Source: Candidatus Dadabacteria bacterium (GTDB taxonomy: Bacteria > Desulfobacterota_D > UBA1144 > Nemesobacterales > CSP1-2). From it: DNA of 27,876 bases. Below, in pieces: positions 14,850 through 21,232 of this stretch. The stretch's first letter is position 1; every line of letters begins with the position of its first letter. The notes beneath the pieces are model-generated. The model did not search any database. It saw nothing but the letters and a program-made list of their open reading frames with translations, and was not told where the DNA came from. Where the stretch lies: the NCBI GenBank assembly GCA_040289575.1, contig PSLL01000001.1, positions 1,173 to 29,048 of the forward strand. The letters are read 5' to 3'. The translations under genes and the position numbers were made by a program.

Positions 14850-15281
14850 TCATTCGTCTTCTATTTGTAGCCAATCAATTTCTTTGAAGTCCTTATCAAA
14901 AGTCGCTATTTCTTCTATTGTATTTTCTTTCATGGCAATACTCACTAAGGCATCGTGATAGTTTAATCTTCCATCAGTTTTTATCATGAGTTCGACTATG
15001 CTGTTATGGAGCTTACCAACAAGAGGATAAGCTCTTATTATCTCAAAGCTCTCTAACTCGCCTTTAATTTTACCTACTATTTTTGCAAACCTGGTTTTTC
15101 TTTCTGCACTTCTTCTTGCAAGGACTGTATAGACCTCGTTCAGGATACAGTCCATTAATGATAAATCTTTTTCTTCATTCTCTAACCTTTTTATAAGTTT
15201 TAAGGCGTTATTGTGATGAACGTCCTTGATGTCCAAAAGAGCAACTACAATGTTCGTATCTATAACAATCTTTTTATTCAT
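14850..15281 (-). CDS. vapC: VapC-like PIN-domain ribonuclease toxin
   Basis: IVIDTN, ILNEV, LNYHDAL, IATFDKDF; all four acidic PIN residues present. Confidence 0.92.
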   Translation of the reverse strand: MNKKIVIDTNIVVALLDIKDVHHNNALKLIKRLENEEKDLSLMDCILNEVYTVLARRSAERKTRFAKIVGKIKGELESFEIIRAYPLVGKLHNSIVELMIKTDGRLNYHDALVSIAMKENTIEEIATFDKDFKEIDWLQIEDE

Positions 15282-15636
15282 AATATGGTTCGGAGTCCTT
15301 TATACTATCTCCGCCAAGAGATAGAGTACCTGCAAGGCTAGATAATTTCTTTTTCTTCGGGGGCCTTTTTTTCTCCTCGCCTACTGTCTTGAACCCTAAT
15401 CTTCTGAGAATTCTTACAGCATCCATAGTAGTAAAATCCATTCTAGTAAAGGTTTCATTGCTATTTTTAAACTTCATTCTCAAGAGATTAAAGATTACCT
15501 CTTTCGGTGGATAGTAACGTCCTTCTATGTCCACTGCATACTTTCTACCCCAACCTTCCGAAATATCCTTTGTTGCTTTCTTTACCTCTTCTGGATTTAC
15601 TTTGAATTCCACACCCCTGAGTCTGGTTTTCATCAT
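15274..15636 (-). CDS. Putative antitoxin with a non-canonical N-terminal domain
   Basis: Overlaps the toxin start by 8 nt; GGAGG RBS; C-terminal tail LSSLAGTLSLGGDSIKDSEPYYE resembles VapB neutralising tails. Confidence 0.7.
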   Translation of the reverse strand: MMKTRLRGVEFKVNPEEVKKATKDISEGWGRKYAVDIEGRYYPPKEVIFNLLRMKFKNSNETFTRMDFTTMDAVRILRRLGFKTVGEEKKRPPKKKKLSSLAGTLSLGGDSIKDSEPYYE

Positions 15637-15649
15637 TAACCTCCAAAAA

Positions 15650-15689
15650 ATACTACTATCAGTTTAAAATAGATATAGTAGTATGTCAA
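15650..15689 (-). promoter_or_regulatory. Toxin-antitoxin operon promoter with overlapping inverted-repeat operator
   Basis: TTGACA (15689-15684), 17 nt, TAAACT (15666-15661). Perfect IR ATACTACTAT (15650-15659) / ATAGTAGTAT (15675-15684). Confidence 0.75.
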
Positions 15690-16730
15690 TTGGCTAATAA
15701 TATTAAATACATCCTTAATGGTCAGCCAACAAAGGCGTTTTCTTTTAAGCTGCTTGGGATGCTGGCTTCTATCGGTCACAAGAATGGAGTGGCTGAGATT
15801 CTGGGCTTTAAGCTGTCTGAATTTCCCGCCTGGTTCTTTTGGCGTGGGGTTTATCTGGCAAAACTCCCCACATTAGCGTGCAAGGTTGAGGTCGCAATTG
15901 ACTGGGCTTGGCAGATTTTCTTTCTGCCCAACATCGTGCAGTTACAAATGGCACGCACTGAACGGGCAAGACGGGCACACTACGCCGCGGGTGAGTTTAT
16001 TGTTCGAAATGGTGATCCGGGCGACCGATTCTTCGTGATCGAAAGTGGCAAGGCGGGTGTCTATATCGATGAGAACTCCCCGCCGATTGCAGTTCTCAAA
16101 GCCGGTGATTATTTCGGTGAGGGGGCGCTTCTGTCACCCGGTGGGAAGGGTGTGCCTATGGCTTCTGTGAAGGCGGAGACGGCCCTTAATCTAATTATGC
16201 TCGGTCGTAATGATTTCATTCAACTCTCGGAATCTTTAGGAGCGCTGCAAAAGGAATTCCACCGGTCTGTGTTGGTCTGAGGTGGCTATCAGAGATTTAT
16301 GGAAATGGTAAGGCACGAACCCTGGTTTTCGATTGCAAGGGTTTCAGAGGTCATGTCTCAGCCCGCTCAGGTTCTTCTAATCAGCCGTACTCTTGAGGAA
16401 GTCGTGGAACGGTTCCATGGGGGCAAACTGGGATACCCGGTGGTTGATGAAAATGGGATTCTACGCGGCTATTGCGGATGCTCTGAGCTGTATGAGGCCC
16501 TGAGTGGAGTTCTTTCAATTAGAACCCCTATATCCGACTTTATGCGGAAGGATACGCCTGCAATTGGTGAGAGTCAATCTCTGGTGGATGTGATACTCGT
16601 GCTTATGCGTGAGCAGATTGAAATACTTCCCGTTGTTTCTTCCGATGGCAGTGGAAGGATAGTGGGAGTTTTGAGTCCAATTGATGTCTTTCGAAAGGTG
16701 GTTGAGGTTTTAAAGACGCATCAGAATTGA
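15690..16730 (+). pseudogene. Remnant of a type II NADH dehydrogenase C-terminus + cNMP-binding + CBS-pair fusion
   Basis: FKLLGMLASIG...AWFFWRGVYLAKLP...DW is the NDH-2 C-terminus; GDPGDRFFVIESG and YFGEGAL mark the cNMP domain. The CBS ORF at 16299 is in the same frame after one TGA (16278-16280). No Rossmann motifs remain. Confidence 0.8.
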
Positions 16731-16769
16731 AGCCGATTATGTGCTTATATGTTTCCCTCGTGGTTCGAA

Positions 16770-18278
16770 TCAACTGTGAAAGGGCAAGCTTCTAAGGCCC
16801 TTTGTCTTTTTTCCAATTAAATGCAGGTAGTATTTGAATTTCTCCATAAGACCTATTTTTCTAAAGAGATATATGTTTCCTTCTCTTTCGACCTTTACCC
16901 TTTCACTCAGATGGTGTTTTCCTAGAAACATTGCACGGGCAAGAAGACGTCTTCCGCCCTCAACTTGGACAAAGCCGAGAATGAGAGGTGAATGGAACCC
17001 TTCGGGTGGGACATGAAGGACTGTAAATGTCTCAAGGATTCCTTCTACACTCTCAATCCTTATATCATCCGTCGTCCGTGGAATGTGAATTGGAAGTGTG
17101 TAGAAACTGGTTCTTTGGGTTGGTCTTATGTTTTCTTTACTCTTCTCCAAGATTATAACGGAATTGTTATTCCCAAGCCCTCCTATAGAATGCGTTAGGG
17201 CTATATCTGTTTTTCCTACCTGGCGCTTGGCATCAACCTCTCCTCTCATCTGTCGCACGGATTCAACGACCTGAGCAAGTCCCGATGCACCGACTGGGTG
17301 ACCCCTTGATTTAAGTCCACCCGATGGGTTTATTGGAAACTGTCCATCAATTTGTGTAATGCCGTCCTCGACGGCCTCCCATCCATTCCCTTCTTCAAAG
17401 AATCCCAGGTCCTCGCTGTTTATAATCTCAAAGCTCGTGAATGCATCATGTACCTCGGCGAAACATATGTCCTTTGGTCCAATTCCTGCCATATCATAGG
17501 CCTCTTTTGCCGCAATCCGTGTGGCCATAAAGGAGGAGAGTGAGCTTCTATGGCTTACACTGAGTGTATCTGTTCCCTGACCTATTCCTAAAACACGAAT
17601 ATCTGTTTTTTCACTTGTAAGAACTAAAGCGGCTGCGCCGTCTGTAATCGGAGAGCAGTCATAGAGCCTTAGAGGCTCAGAGACAAATCTACTCTCCTTA
17701 TAATCTTCAAATGTGATTCTTTTCTGGAACTGCGCAAGAGGGTTCAGGGAGCCGTTAAAGTGGTTCTTTATAGCTACGGATGATAGGATTTTTTCCATTC
17801 TTCTTTGGGGGATTTTAAACCGTCCCATATAGACTTGGGTTATCATTGCAGCAAGCGCGGGCATTGTACCTCCCGTCTCTCTTTCCCTTTGCTCTATTAC
17901 CTCGGCAAGGATTCGTGTGGTTTTTGCGGTCGGAAGATGGGTCATCTTTTCTCCGGCAATGACAAGAACGTTTTTAAACCTGCCCGAAGCTACGGCTGCA
18001 TATGCAACTGAAAAAACCGCTGCGCCGGAGGAAGATGCGGTCTCTACACGGATTGAAGGAATCCCTAAAAGGCCAAGCGCATCGGCTGTAAGCACCCCAA
18101 TATTGCCCGTTCCAGTGAATTCTTCGGGGTTCATAGTACCGATAAATATTGCCTGAGGCTCCGGATACTTAGATACGCTAAGTGCTTCTCTTCCGGCTTT
18201 GACGAGAAGGGATTTTAAATTCAAATCCGATTTCTCGAATTTAGTCATCCCAATTCCATCTATATAGACGGAACCCAT
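16770..18278 (-). CDS. SCP2/archaeal-type thiolase-fold protein fused to a C-terminal DUF35-like OB fold
   Basis: GIGMTKF, GEKM, KNHFNG...NPLAQFQ, DCSPITDGAAA, EVHDAF, NPSGGLKSRGHPVGASG; C-terminal GILETFTVLHVPPEGF. AGGAG RBS before ATG 18278. Confidence 0.88.
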   Translation of the reverse strand: MGSVYIDGIGMTKFEKSDLNLKSLLVKAGREALSVSKYPEPQAIFIGTMNPEEFTGTGNIGVLTADALGLLGIPSIRVETASSSGAAVFSVAYAAVASGRFKNVLVIAGEKMTHLPTAKTTRILAEVIEQRERETGGTMPALAAMITQVYMGRFKIPQRRMEKILSSVAIKNHFNGSLNPLAQFQKRITFEDYKESRFVSEPLRLYDCSPITDGAAALVLTSEKTDIRVLGIGQGTDTLSVSHRSSLSSFMATRIAAKEAYDMAGIGPKDICFAEVHDAFTSFEIINSEDLGFFEEGNGWEAVEDGITQIDGQFPINPSGGLKSRGHPVGASGLAQVVESVRQMRGEVDAKRQVGKTDIALTHSIGGLGNNNSVIILEKSKENIRPTQRTSFYTLPIHIPRTTDDIRIESVEGILETFTVLHVPPEGFHSPLILGFVQVEGGRRLLARAMFLGKHHLSERVKVEREGNIYLFRKIGLMEKFKYYLHLIGKKTKGLRSLPFHS

Positions 18279-18444
18279 AATTAAAACTCCTGGTGGATTC
18301 GGATATACAGACTCTACATATAATTTTACCCTCATATTTCTTCGGCTAATAGTTTAATATTTAGATGTATAGCCGATAATTGCCGTTACAATTGTGAGAG
18401 TCGAACGGTGGCAATGACAGCCTATAGGCTGCATCGTTTTTCCC

Positions 18445-18472
18445 TTGACATCATTCGGCTCTAATATATCCT
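18445..18472 (+). promoter_or_regulatory. Possible sigma70 promoter for degP
   Basis: TTGACA (18445-18450), 16 nt, TATCCT (18467-18472). Confidence 0.4.
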
Positions 18473-18498
18473 TTTTTATAATTGGAGGTTCTCAAAAC

Positions 18499-19920
18499 AT
18501 GAGAAAATCGTTAGAAGCGGTTGTGCTAATTTTCGTTGTTGTGTCACTTGTTATTTCAACATTCCCGGCTTGGAAAACCCATGCGGCTGAGCTTCCATCA
18601 TTAGCCGACCTAGTTAAGAGATTGAAGCCGTCTGTGGTAAATATCAGCACTACGAGCGTTGTAAAAGGGGGTGGAAGCCTATTTGAATCGCCTTTTGGGG
18701 GTGGCAAGCAGGACCCCTTTGAAGAGTTTTTCAAAAAGTTCTTTGGGGATGTTCCTCAAAGGGAGTTCAGGCAGAGGGGGCTTGGCTCCGGTTTCATTCT
18801 AAGCGAGGATGGCTATATTGTAACGAATAATCATGTTGTAGAAAAGGCAAACGATATAGAAGTAGTCCTGGAAGACGGAGAAAGATACAAAGCCAGGGTT
18901 ATAGGAAAAGACCCGAAAACCGACGTGGCGCTCCTTAAGATCGGGCCTAAACATAGACTCCCGGCTGCTGTGCTTGGGGACTCGGATAAGCTTGAGATCG
19001 GGGATTGGGTCATTGCGGTAGGGAATCCATTTGGACTGGGTCATACTGTTACGGCTGGAATAGTTAGTGCAAAGGGTAGGTCTCTGGGGCTTGGCACATA
19101 CGATGATTTTATTCAAACTGATGCGGCTATAAATCCCGGAAATAGCGGAGGGCCTCTTTTTAATCTCCAGGGACAGGTTGTCGGCGTCAACACAGCAATT
19201 GTCGCGGGAGGGCAAGGGATAGGGTTTGCAATACCAATCAATCTGGCAAAGAGTGTAATAACCCAGCTAAAGAGCACAGGAAGGGTGGTACGCGGATGGC
19301 TAGGGGTTTTGGTACAACAGATAACACCGGATATAGCAGAGGGCTTAGGGCTCACTGAGCCTAGGGGTGCACTGGTTTCGGATGTAACTCCGGGTAGCCC
19401 TGCGGATAAGGCTGGCATAAAGAGGCAGGATATTATCACTGAATTTAACGGACAGAAGATCAACGATATGCAGGAGCTCCCGAGATTGGTTGCCGCAACC
19501 CCTCCGGGGACGGAGGTGACGTTAAAATTCCTAAGAAATGGAAAAGAGCAAACTGCGAGATTAAAACTCGGAGAACTTCCCGAGGAGATCGCCAAATCCG
19601 GCACAGGGGGACAGCAGGTTGAACAGGACCTCGGTCTTGTCGTTCAGGAAATCAACCCTCAAATGCAGAGGCGTCTTGGGATTCAGGACTCTCAAGGGGT
19701 CATTATAACGAGTGTGGAATCCGGGAGTATTGCCGAAGAGGCCGGGCTTCGTCCTGGAGATATAATCCTTGAGATAAACAAAAAGCAGGTCAAGAACCTA
19801 GATGATTACAGAAAGGGGATAGACTCTATTAAATCGGGTCAGACCGTGCTTTTGCTTGTAAAGAGGGATAAGAATACCCTCTACGTTGCCCTCAAGGTTG
19901 AAGGAAATGCCAAGGGTTGA
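18499..19920 (+). CDS. degP: DegP/DegQ (HtrA/Do) periplasmic serine protease with two PDZ domains
   Basis: Signal peptide, GSGFI, TNNHVV, DVALLK, INPGNSGGPL; GGAGG RBS before ATG 18499. Confidence 0.95.
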   Translation: MRKSLEAVVLIFVVVSLVISTFPAWKTHAAELPSLADLVKRLKPSVVNISTTSVVKGGGSLFESPFGGGKQDPFEEFFKKFFGDVPQREFRQRGLGSGFILSEDGYIVTNNHVVEKANDIEVVLEDGERYKARVIGKDPKTDVALLKIGPKHRLPAAVLGDSDKLEIGDWVIAVGNPFGLGHTVTAGIVSAKGRSLGLGTYDDFIQTDAAINPGNSGGPLFNLQGQVVGVNTAIVAGGQGIGFAIPINLAKSVITQLKSTGRVVRGWLGVLVQQITPDIAEGLGLTEPRGALVSDVTPGSPADKAGIKRQDIITEFNGQKINDMQELPRLVAATPPGTEVTLKFLRNGKEQTARLKLGELPEEIAKSGTGGQQVEQDLGLVVQEINPQMQRRLGIQDSQGVIITSVESGSIAEEAGLRPGDIILEINKKQVKNLDDYRKGIDSIKSGQTVLLLVKRDKNTLYVALKVEGNAKG

Positions 19921-20434: not shown

Positions 20435-21232
20435 ATGCCCAAGATCAAAGGGATTTTCATTTATTCTGACTATCCGTCAAAGGCGTTGTCAATTGAGAAA
20501 ATAATTGATTATCTAAGGGGTTGCGGGCTCTTTGCCCAATATCGAGGGAATATCTTTGAATTCTTAGGCCCAAATTTGGAGGAAGCAATAGAGTTGAGCG
20601 GTAGAATCGCAGGGGCAAGGATTCTGGACATATCCGCGCCGATTGATGAAATCCGTGAGCCGATTCATGGGGAAATTGACGTTGAGCTAAAGAGGCTCAG
20701 AGGCAACGAAAGCCTTCTCGGAGTGCTCTACGACGGGCTTTGGCTTCAGAGGATTTTTTATAAAATCATGTCTGAGAGAATCCCTGAGTTTAAAAGCGGA
20801 TATATTCATATAATCTTTACAAGCAGGCTTTTTGGAACCTATGAGACAGGAAGGTATCATGCGAGGGTCATACTTACAGGACTTCCGTCTTTAATCTCTA
20901 CCTCAGGAATAGTTGAGGCTCCTGCAAAGCCGAAGGACTACTACTGGCTAAAAGCCGGATTTATAAGGGCAGGAAAAGACATTCAAGAGCTTGATCTACT
21001 CTATAGAGGGAGATTTATTGAATATGACGATTCAAGGATTACCAAGGCCTTAAGTCCTTATGTACTTCAATCTGTTTTTTATGAGATTACCGGGAATCCC
21101 TTTTGTGATAATCCTGACTGCTGTCTTTATAACTCACACTGGCAGGAGGAGGTCTTAAAGGCTCAGATTGGGGGAGAACTATGCGGGGAGCATAGAGATA
21201 TTATAAAAAGGCTTGAGCTATCTGAGGAATAA
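20435..21232 (+). CDS. Archaemetzincin-like / DUF6775-type putative metalloprotein
   Basis: YDG, HIIFTSRLFGT...RYHARV, ISTSGIVEAPAKP, FCDNPDCCLYNSHWQ...LCGEH. Confidence 0.65.
   Translation: MPKIKGIFIYSDYPSKALSIEKIIDYLRGCGLFAQYRGNIFEFLGPNLEEAIELSGRIAGARILDISAPIDEIREPIHGEIDVELKRLRGNESLLGVLYDGLWLQRIFYKIMSERIPEFKSGYIHIIFTSRLFGTYETGRYHARVILTGLPSLISTSGIVEAPAKPKDYYWLKAGFIRAGKDIQELDLLYRGRFIEYDDSRITKALSPYVLQSVFYEITGNPFCDNPDCCLYNSHWQEEVLKAQIGGELCGEHRDIIKRLELSEE

Follow-up and report, generated by a model that had tools for sequence, protein, structure and literature searches.

Thiolase-fold proteins that work together with a DUF35 protein are known from several described systems. The archaeal acetoacetyl-coenzyme A (CoA) thiolase of M. 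thermolithotrophicus (6esq/6et9) belongs to a thiolase/HMGCS/DUF35 complex. This enzyme and the P. furiosus thiolase PFC_04095 (7yvy) carry a nucleophilic cysteine in a CASG motif, have a separate DUF35 protein with a zinc ribbon, and serve the mevalonate pathway. Two other systems, Ltp2-ChsH2 (6ok1) and Sal-Shy (9myr), which act on steroid side chains, have the same fold without the nucleophilic cysteine and are assisted by the DUF35 proteins ChsH2 and Shy; the account in PMC12329534 presents both as non-covalent retro-aldolases. According to that account, Tyr294 of the YDHF motif and Tyr344 serve Ltp2 in catalysis. In Sal this part falls to Tyr302 and Cys304 of YDCY, and a glycine occupies the nucleophile position, its backbone amide touching the substrate hydroxyl. 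TbSLP, with the motif YDCF, decarboxylates malonyl-CoA very slowly. In the C-acyltransferases PhlABC and MucABC (5m3k, 9vbo), the subunits PhlC and MucB, again thiolase-fold proteins with DUF35 partners, are described in PMC12960953 as carrying out acyl transfer rather than thiolysis. The gene considered here comes from a Candidatus Dadabacteria bacterium (GenBank assembly GCA_040289575.1, contig PSLL01000001.1) and lies in a stretch of 27,876 nucleotides, positions 1,173 to 29,048 of that contig, which is called the window below. It encodes a single chain with a serine, Ser82, at the thiolase nucleophile position and a C-terminal DUF35-like domain that lacks the zinc ribbon. Its sequence suggests an active enzyme that works on a CoA thioester, but not a thiolase, because the nucleophilic cysteine is absent.

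The 502-residue frame (16770-18278, reverse strand; Table 1) has no internal stop codon, begins with the ATG at 18278-18276 and is preceded by AGGAG, so that the uninterrupted frame with a good ribosome-binding site reported in a preliminary description of this DNA is borne out. An alternative ATG occurs upstream at 18335; homologues begin at the 18278 position instead. A promoter and terminator scan of 16650-18500 gave signals not above shuffled expectation. The same description had read RVETASSSG, with a TCT codon at 18035-18033, in place of the cysteine motif, and the codons stand at exactly that position on the reverse strand; HDAF at 17450-17439 and an intact GHPVGASG are also read directly from the sequence. 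HMMER pairwise alignments with proteins of solved structure pair Ser82 with the nucleophilic cysteine of 7yvy (KIEAACASG) and 6esq (RVEAACASG), and pair Ala279 with the cysteine of HDCF in 6esq. Both thiolase cysteines are thus absent from the protein. The fold and all active-site loops are kept (ETASS, GxEKM, HDAF, NPSGGLKxRGHPVGASG and GGLGNNN). A full-length AlphaFold2 (AF2) model, with a predicted local distance difference test score (pLDDT) of 90.7 and a predicted template modelling score of 0.90, has the five-layer thiolase fold, and Foldseek matches it to 4yzo, 7yvy and 6esq with template modelling (TM) scores of 0.91-0.94. With 6esq and 7yvy (sequence E values 4.7e-52 and 1.9e-71; TM 0.91-0.93) the protein shares GxEKM, HDxF, NPSGGLK.(R/K)GHP and DG(A/S)A, and HDAF itself is held in common with 7yvy.

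The second motif requires some caution. The preliminary description was right that HDAF replaces HDCF, but as a sign of lost function the replacement does not stand. HDAF occurs together with a nucleophilic cysteine in 7yvy, in 15 of 69 Cys-bearing representatives of the wider family, in a paralogue from the same genome (contig C23) and in the orthologue of that paralogue in a relative with a 1-Mb genome; it is therefore not diagnostic of lost thiolase function. PMC12960953, from 2026, gives the archaeal thiolase motif simply as HDxF. A working thiolase that uses Ser82, slowly, or Cys208 as nucleophile would be compatible with this, with the invariance of Cys208 (120 of 120 homologues) and with the database label of the family, acetyl-CoA acetyltransferase. 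Such a thiolase is nevertheless very improbable. In the Cys208 column, shared with 6esq, cysteine also occurs in the canonical ENACASG/HDCF paralogue from the same genome and in 60 of the 69 Cys-type representatives. Cys208 is therefore ancestral, a long-standing residue of the structure or of the pantetheine tunnel that did not newly arise to replace the nucleophile. By homology to the Z. ramigera enzyme, we take Cys208 to neighbour the pantetheine-binding serine. Classical and Cys-type thiolases are already present in the same genomes, and the protein scores under the curated cut-offs of both NCBIfam models of archaeal-type thiolases (NF004720, 373.9 bits against 420; NF053570, 294.8 against 600).

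Ser82 is strongly conserved. Hundreds of homologues of about 500 residues exist, and the best 120 matches among 5.8 billion proteins, this one included (about 480-545 residues, identity down to about 52%), all have E-T-A-S at positions 79-82, HDAF and GHP; invariance of Ser82, HDAF and GHP in 120 of 120 is far beyond chance. In addition, 80 metagenome loci were gathered with the family alignment. Their open reading frames (ORFs) matched at E<=1e-30 in 73 cases. At 8 of the 80 a simple ORF caller found no clean ORF, and these loci were left unclassified. Position 82 in the 73 ORFs is serine in 50, threonine in 10 and proline in 3, and is missing from 10 partial ones; HDAF is present in all 73. 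Every full fused metagenome relative (50/50) has the serine, and none of the 63 scorable relatives has a cysteine there. A private mutation or sequencing error is ruled out by these counts, and the case in which close homologues would all have cysteine, raised in advance by the preliminary description, fails. Across distinct DNA contexts the serine is encoded by TCT (26), TCC (19), TCA (9), TCG (4) and AGC (1), and this synonymous turnover indicates purifying selection on Ser82.

The surrounding site has also changed in a family-specific manner. When 120 fused members were compared with 67 Cys-type representatives, 28 positions carried residues that are fixed to 95% or more among the fused proteins and uncommon in thiolases. 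These include T80, S82, S83, A108, G109, H114, Y193, F283 and N370-N372, as well as M139 (Phe in thiolases) and A143 (Phe or Tyr in thiolases). N370, N371 and N372 are found in 115, 120 and 120 of the 120 fused members, respectively, where the commonest residues of the Cys-type representatives are A, T and C. The invariant blocks coincide with the active-site loops of thiolases, and His327 and the GG loop (G366, G367) of the second oxyanion hole are invariant. Since the new invariant residues lie within thiolase loops, the site looks rebuilt, not decaying.

The wider family was sampled with a HMMER search over 1.84 billion cluster representatives, which gave 8937 matches at E<=1e-3 and 775 at E<=1e-30. 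In the query and the best 150 of the 8937 (151 sequences), position 82 is Cys in 69, Ser in 36, Pro in 11, Asp in 5, Thr and Gly in 3 each, Asn, Phe and Glu in 2 each, Val in 1 and a gap in 17. The motif pairs include Cys with HDCF (46), Ser with HDAF (27), Cys with HDAF (15) and Pro with HDAF (10). A quick FastTree (LG) analysis with midpoint rooting only was run on 130 of the 151 sequences, the other 21 being shorter than 340 residues or gapped at the motifs. It separates three clades. The Dadabacteria protein falls in a Cys-free clade of 35 (23 Ser, 8 Pro, 2 Phe, 1 Val, 1 Thr; support 0.97), in which 33 have HDAF. A second clade of 7 is ST0096-like (4 Ser, 3 Pro; support 0.98), and the third, of 88, contains all 69 Cys sequences (support 0.996). 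Within the Cys-free clade a Ser-only group of 20 includes all 12 fused representatives (at least 450 residues) with a weak support of 0.30, and the core fused clade has Ser in 7 of 7 (support 0.89). On the best explanation, the gene product belongs to an old clade that lacks the cysteine and is sister to the thiolases of archaeal/SCP2 type. The protein has all four features of the fused Ser-type clade: a length near 500 residues with ETASS[STA]G, HDAF, GGLGNNN, and an OB (oligonucleotide/oligosaccharide-binding) tail without zinc ribbon. Source labels of the carriers include Thermodesulfobacteriota, Nitrospinota, Binatota, Myxococcota, Aminicenantota and Spirochaetota, and one homologue bears the label of a cultured species, Thermosulfidibacter takaii.

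The closest protein of solved structure is ST0096 from Sulfolobus tokodaii (4yzo), labeled as a 'thiolase-like protein' or 'putative acyl-CoA acyltransferase'. It is the best match in sequence (E 1.3e-73) and the best fold match to the model (E 5.8e-40, TM 0.94, 37% identity). ST0096 has a serine of its own at the nucleophile position (RVDNTSGSG) and no cysteine in its HDxx motif. It differs in being unfused, with 373 residues, in having HDMA where HDAF is found here and a tyrosine in place of Cys208, and in its separate tree clade. Full-text searches found no literature on the Ser-type or fused thiolase-DUF35 family, or on the function of ST0096 or 7yvy; the one relevant paper draws on ST0096 for comparison of structures.

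The C-terminal OB domain is a DUF35 homologue. PF01796 matches this protein with 19.8 bits, below its cut-off of 27.1. Among family members, 48 of 55 match PF01796 at E<=1e-3 and none of the 55 match PF12172, the zinc ribbon. No cysteine occurs in residues 381-502, and no CxxC in the tails of the 120 homologues. A model of the tail alone (AF2, pLDDT 80) retrieves DUF35 subunits at Foldseek ranks 1-9, namely BbsA (7pxp/7pyt), ChsH2 (6ok1) and the archaeal 6esq chains E-G, with E values of 8e-5 to 4e-4 and TM scores of 0.41-0.48; ribosomal S12-like OB folds rank next. A DUF35-like OB fold without the zinc ribbon, as first described from the sequence, is in agreement with all of these results. 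The Thr- and Pro-type relatives are unfused proteins of about 375 residues, with a separate DUF35 ORF that overlaps or abuts the stop codon and encodes CxxC...CxxH/C, an OB fold and a basic C-terminal helix. Over the OB fold, these separate ORFs can be aligned with the tails of the fused proteins, and their zinc ribbon then stands opposite the Cys-free linker; the fusion thus arose from a thiolase-like/DUF35 gene pair with loss of the zinc ribbon. The last 40 residues of the 120 homologues are basic, with a median net charge of +6 (range -3 to +14), and fused and split DUF35 proteins are alike in this. A membrane-binding amphipathic C-terminal helix was considered and rejected, as the hydrophobic moment was not above that of shuffled sequences (median z 1.0; z>2 in 23 of 120).

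The preliminary description had proposed a single-chain catalyst other than a thiolase, either an acyl-CoA retro-aldolase or an acyltransferase with a serine nucleophile. The general part holds: the protein is a conserved single chain, lacks the cysteines, scores below the NCBIfam cut-offs and has its DUF35 domain fused. The specific chemistry holds only in part. The signature of an Ltp2/Sal-like retro-aldolase is missing, since the catalytic Tyr of YDHF/YDCY corresponds to His277 (120/120) and Cys304 of Sal to Ala279; with His for Tyr and Ala for Cys in the motif, the protein is not a member of the Ltp2/Sal kind. Sequence similarity to those enzymes is distant, and the match to 6ok1 (E 1.4e-21) covers residues 164-347 only. 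Among the fold matches to the model, Sal and Ltp2 take ranks 32 and 38. Their DUF35 domain belongs to a MaoC-type hydratase subunit encoded in a steroid catabolic cluster and keeps its zinc finger, in contrast to the zinc-ribbon-less domain fused to the thiolase-like chain here; no hydratase gene adjoins the Dadabacteria gene. A similarly non-covalent mode may still apply to this protein.

A non-covalent cleavage or decarboxylation of a C-C bond through a thioester enolate, based on His277 and His327, is tentatively favored, with confidence that stays somewhat short of even. In such a mechanism the oxyanion hole formed by His277 and His327 would stabilize the thioester enolate, and the C-C bond would be cut without a covalent acyl-enzyme, in a retro-aldol, retro-Claisen-like or decarboxylation reaction. 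The backbone NH and hydroxyl of Ser82 would hydrogen-bond to the β-oxygen or carboxylate of the substrate. Closure of the substrate cleft, a role that separate DUF35 proteins play in trans, would fall in cis to the linker and the fused OB domain. The tree gives the reason for this preference. The Cys-free clade keeps HDAF (33/35) while position 82 varies, so that what its members share is the histidines of the oxyanion hole, not a nucleophile, and this favors enolate chemistry over an acyl-enzyme. The Cys-free systems of PMC12329534 also speak for it: Ltp2 and Sal both cleave non-covalently, the amide contact in Sal comes from the nucleophile position, and TbSLP is a slow decarboxylase. There is precedent in ketosynthases, which decarboxylate when their cysteine is changed to glutamine. 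The family III CoA-transferase and Dpp/Opp-type importer genes that accompany Thr-type relatives would fit an imported acid that is converted to its CoA ester and then cleaved.

Several observations weigh against this enolate mechanism. The protein lacks the residues with which the known aldolases carry out catalysis (Tyr to His277, Cys304 to Ala279), and no replacement acid/base was identified. The fused Ser type has no conserved hydratase, dehydrogenase or CoA-activating neighbors, and a family III CoA-transferase is found at 0 of 50 of its metagenome loci. Pro-type relatives, without the backbone NH, may work differently or not at all, and what is deduced from the wider clade may not hold for the Ser subclade. 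Within that subclade the serine is strictly kept, in 20 of 20 representatives and in the 120 homologues, and such conservation is no less in keeping with a catalytic nucleophile than with a hydrogen-bond donor.

This constancy of Ser82, seen also in the 50 fused metagenome relatives, is the main argument for a Ser-His acyl-enzyme. Here Ser82, activated by His327, would take the acyl group from acyl-CoA and hand the O-acyl on, either to water or to an acceptor hydroxyl, amine or carbon, as an acyltransferase or thioesterase on the thiolase fold. We regard this as a serious though rather unlikely alternative. It would agree with the invariance of His327 and of the GG loop. It may also agree with gene order in one subclade, where a string of genes begins with this gene, its only enzyme gene, and continues with a GntR/FCD regulator (17/50 loci, with overlapping start) and a Dpp/Opp importer. 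Genes for CoA activation are lacking from the string, which could suit a reaction that acylates an imported compound with a common acyl-CoA. The Z. ramigera thiolase reportedly can still be O-acetylated as its C89S mutant, and a Ser-His-Asp triad serves DpsC, an acyltransferase that resembles KAS III (β-ketoacyl-acyl carrier protein synthase III). However, an acidic partner for such a triad was not identified in the present protein, and sister lineages that have HDAF and GHP carry Pro, Phe or Val at position 82, residues incapable of acting as nucleophiles. This variation in the wider Cys-free clade, where Thr also occurs, weakens the serine acyltransferase of the preliminary description. PhlC and MucB, fold matches to the model, speak for an acyl-enzyme as acyl-transferring relatives with DUF35 partners, and against it in that PMC12960953 describes them as keeping the cysteine and lacking HDxF, in contrast to the Ser and HDAF found here. 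They also need an HMGS-like third subunit. No HMGS-like gene was found beside the Ser-type fusion gene. In Sal, replacement of Cys304, a residue of YDCY and not of the nucleophile position, by serine is reported in PMC12329534 to have abolished activity.

Gene neighborhoods differ among the subclades and point to no pathway. They were tallied at the metagenome loci (50 Ser-type, 10 Thr-type), which are interrelated, so that the counts are not independent. At Ser-type loci a GntR/FCD regulator overlaps the stop codon in 17 of 50, sometimes followed by the Dpp/Opp-type ATP-binding cassette (ABC) importer, and a divergent Peptidase_Mx gene occurs in 13 of 50; neither was seen with the Thr type. 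Dpp/Opp ABC ATPases accompany 5 of 50 Ser-type and 5 of 10 Thr-type genes. RodZ is also recurrent. No hydratase was annotated among the Pfam-scanned neighbors, and enoyl-CoA hydratase was found at 3 of 50 Ser-type and 1 of 10 Thr-type metagenome loci. The family III CoA-transferase, absent from the Ser-type loci, occurs in 4 of 10 Thr-type and 4 of 8 unclassified ones, and in the unfused Thr-type relatives it lies directly downstream of the DUF35 gene. For example, loci L105 (9992-12760), L109 (7362-10094), L117 and L118 have a Thr-type operon with a thiolase-like gene (ETATSSG), a zinc-ribbon DUF35 gene and the family III CoA-transferase; upstream of the operon are genes of a Dpp/Opp-type ABC transporter, and L109 has a LeuA/HMGL-like gene on the downstream side. 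At L095 (1-6368) a Pro-type relative (DNAPASG) is paired with a small CxC...CxxC DUF35 gene, and the pair is flanked by genes for a propionyl-CoA carboxylase-type carboxyltransferase, methylmalonyl-CoA mutase and acyl-CoA dehydrogenase.

Loss of both thiolase cysteines, Pro, Phe and Val at the nucleophile position of the wider clade, translational coupling to the GntR/FCD regulator (17/50 loci) and a metabolic partner gene conserved nowhere in the neighborhoods examined could also describe a protein that is not a catalyst. Its part might be that of a scaffold, of a partner in regulation or of a module that binds acyl-CoA, with its chemistry lost as in PhlA/MucA-type subunits, and DUF35 proteins are presented as complex organizers in bioRxiv 10.1101/2024.07.05.601840. 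This is improbable. Decaying sites normally drift, whereas the active-site loops here are all invariant and new family-specific invariant residues lie in them. The gene usually stands alone, without an adjacent catalytic thiolase or HMGCS-like gene, and it is kept in genomes of about 1 Mb with only three thiolase-fold genes.

Within the phylum, the gene (E<=1e-80) is found in 14 of 120 genomes: 5 of 14 in one family (f1), 8 of 19 in another (f9), and the genome described here. None of the 86 genomes in the other seven families has it. The f9 genomes are only about 1 Mb in size, and the three thiolase-fold genes of one of them are a classical thiolase, a Cys/HDAF protein with DUF35, and the Ser-type fusion. 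Another genome of about 1 Mb has two copies with near-identical neighborhoods (loci L033 and L034, on contigs C13 and C24 of genome G109), possibly a real duplication or a mixed assembly (contamination is given as 5%). A 39%-identical match in a genome of the same family as the Dadabacteria described here (L026; G011 contig C332, 1487-2884) is broken by one TGA and two TAA codons and is possibly a decayed copy or two genes. The neighbors in the phylum are housekeeping genes, with a divergent HtrA gene at 9 of 11 loci and also fmt, ThiG, SMC and CofD. The genome itself (95% complete) has six further thiolase-fold genes, three of them followed by a separate DUF35 gene. One of its contigs (C116, about 86.3-91.7 kb; L011/L012) carries a tandem thiolase-fold pair without the cysteine and the GHP histidine (motifs HTGGTTGG/YAPF and SDG-G/SDVT), followed by a DUF35 gene. 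A link to the mevalonate pathway was considered and rejected: the genome has no HMG_CoA_synt_C match, and no HMG-CoA (3-hydroxy-3-methylglutaryl-CoA) reductase was found in this genome and four relatives (0/5).

Table 1. Features of the Ser-type fusion gene and its product, in window coordinates.
Feature	Position	Strand	Remarks
Coding sequence, Ser-type thiolase-like/OB-fold fusion protein	16770..18278	-	502 aa; TGA at 16772-16770
Shine-Dalgarno-like AGGAG	18287..18291	-	8 nt 5' of the ATG at 18278; read off the sequence
Thiolase N-terminal half, residues 1-232	17583..18278	-	PF00108 over 8-223, E 3.2e-17
Thiolase C-terminal half, residues 233-380	17139..17582	-	PF22691 over 233-379, E 1.4e-46
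Ser82 codon TCT, thiolase nucleophile position, motif E79-T-A-S-S-S-G85	18033..18035	-	Sequence and alignment
Cys208 (TGC), sole conserved Cys column of the fused family	17655..17657	-	120/120
H277-D-A-F280 (cat gat gca ttc), HDxF motif, Ala where SCP2/archaeal thiolases often have the acid/base Cys	17439..17450	-	
G326-H-P-V-G-A-S-G333, GHP motif with His327	17280..17303	-	
N370-N371-N372, last active-site loop (GGLGNNN), specific to the fused Ser family	17163..17171	-	
Linker, residues 381-409, at the place of the lost DUF35 zinc ribbon; no Cys	17052..17138	-	No secondary structure in the model
DUF35-type OB fold, residues 410-474, five strands	16857..17051	-	PF01796 match at 412-448
C-terminal basic helix and tail, residues 475-502	16773..16856	-	Helix 477-496 in the model

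Elsewhere in the window, two ORFs next to the Ser-type fusion gene, one with NDH2_C and cNMP-binding domains (15690-16280) and one with a CBS pair (16299-16730), are parts of a single truncated gene (15687-16724, forward strand). Together they match residues 329-674 of an intact 674-residue NDH-2-like/cNMP/CBS protein from a genome of the same genus, with 81.5% identity in a single frame that is interrupted by an in-frame TGA at 16278-16280. The N-terminal 328 residues, the flavoprotein part, are gone; a PIN-domain gene and an ORF of 120 residues without a Pfam match are found there instead (14850-15636, reverse strand). At 20435-21232 (forward strand) the window has a gene of 265 codons for a DUF6775/DUF7001 'probable metallopeptidase', which is conserved beside RidA and HtrA genes in a locus of the same genus (L028).

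The thiolase-fold proteins with DUF35 described so far are thiolases, retro-aldolases and Friedel-Crafts acyltransferases, and the Ser/HDAF clade adds a further, well-delimited and strongly conserved branch. It is conceivable, though on the unlikely side, that the fused Ser-type proteins make up a widespread enzyme class with a chemistry undescribed for this fold. This might be a serine acyl-enzyme or, alternatively, a C-C lyase or decarboxylase that needs no cofactor and has a new acid/base set, for which H114, Y193 and N370-372 are candidates. Such a class would have a common small CoA ester as its substrate, would span many phyla of uncultured bacteria and would persist even in streamlined genomes of about 1 Mb. 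In that case, thousands of 'acetyl-CoA acetyltransferase' entries in the databases would carry the wrong reaction. Because this label is applied routinely, reconstructions of many uncultured lineages probably credit them with an absent thiolase at this locus. The protein is a natural single chain that should be soluble without a partner, and it is therefore a convenient entry to the chemistry of the Cys-free clade. The single-chain form would also help to show the role of a DUF35 domain that can do without its zinc ribbon.

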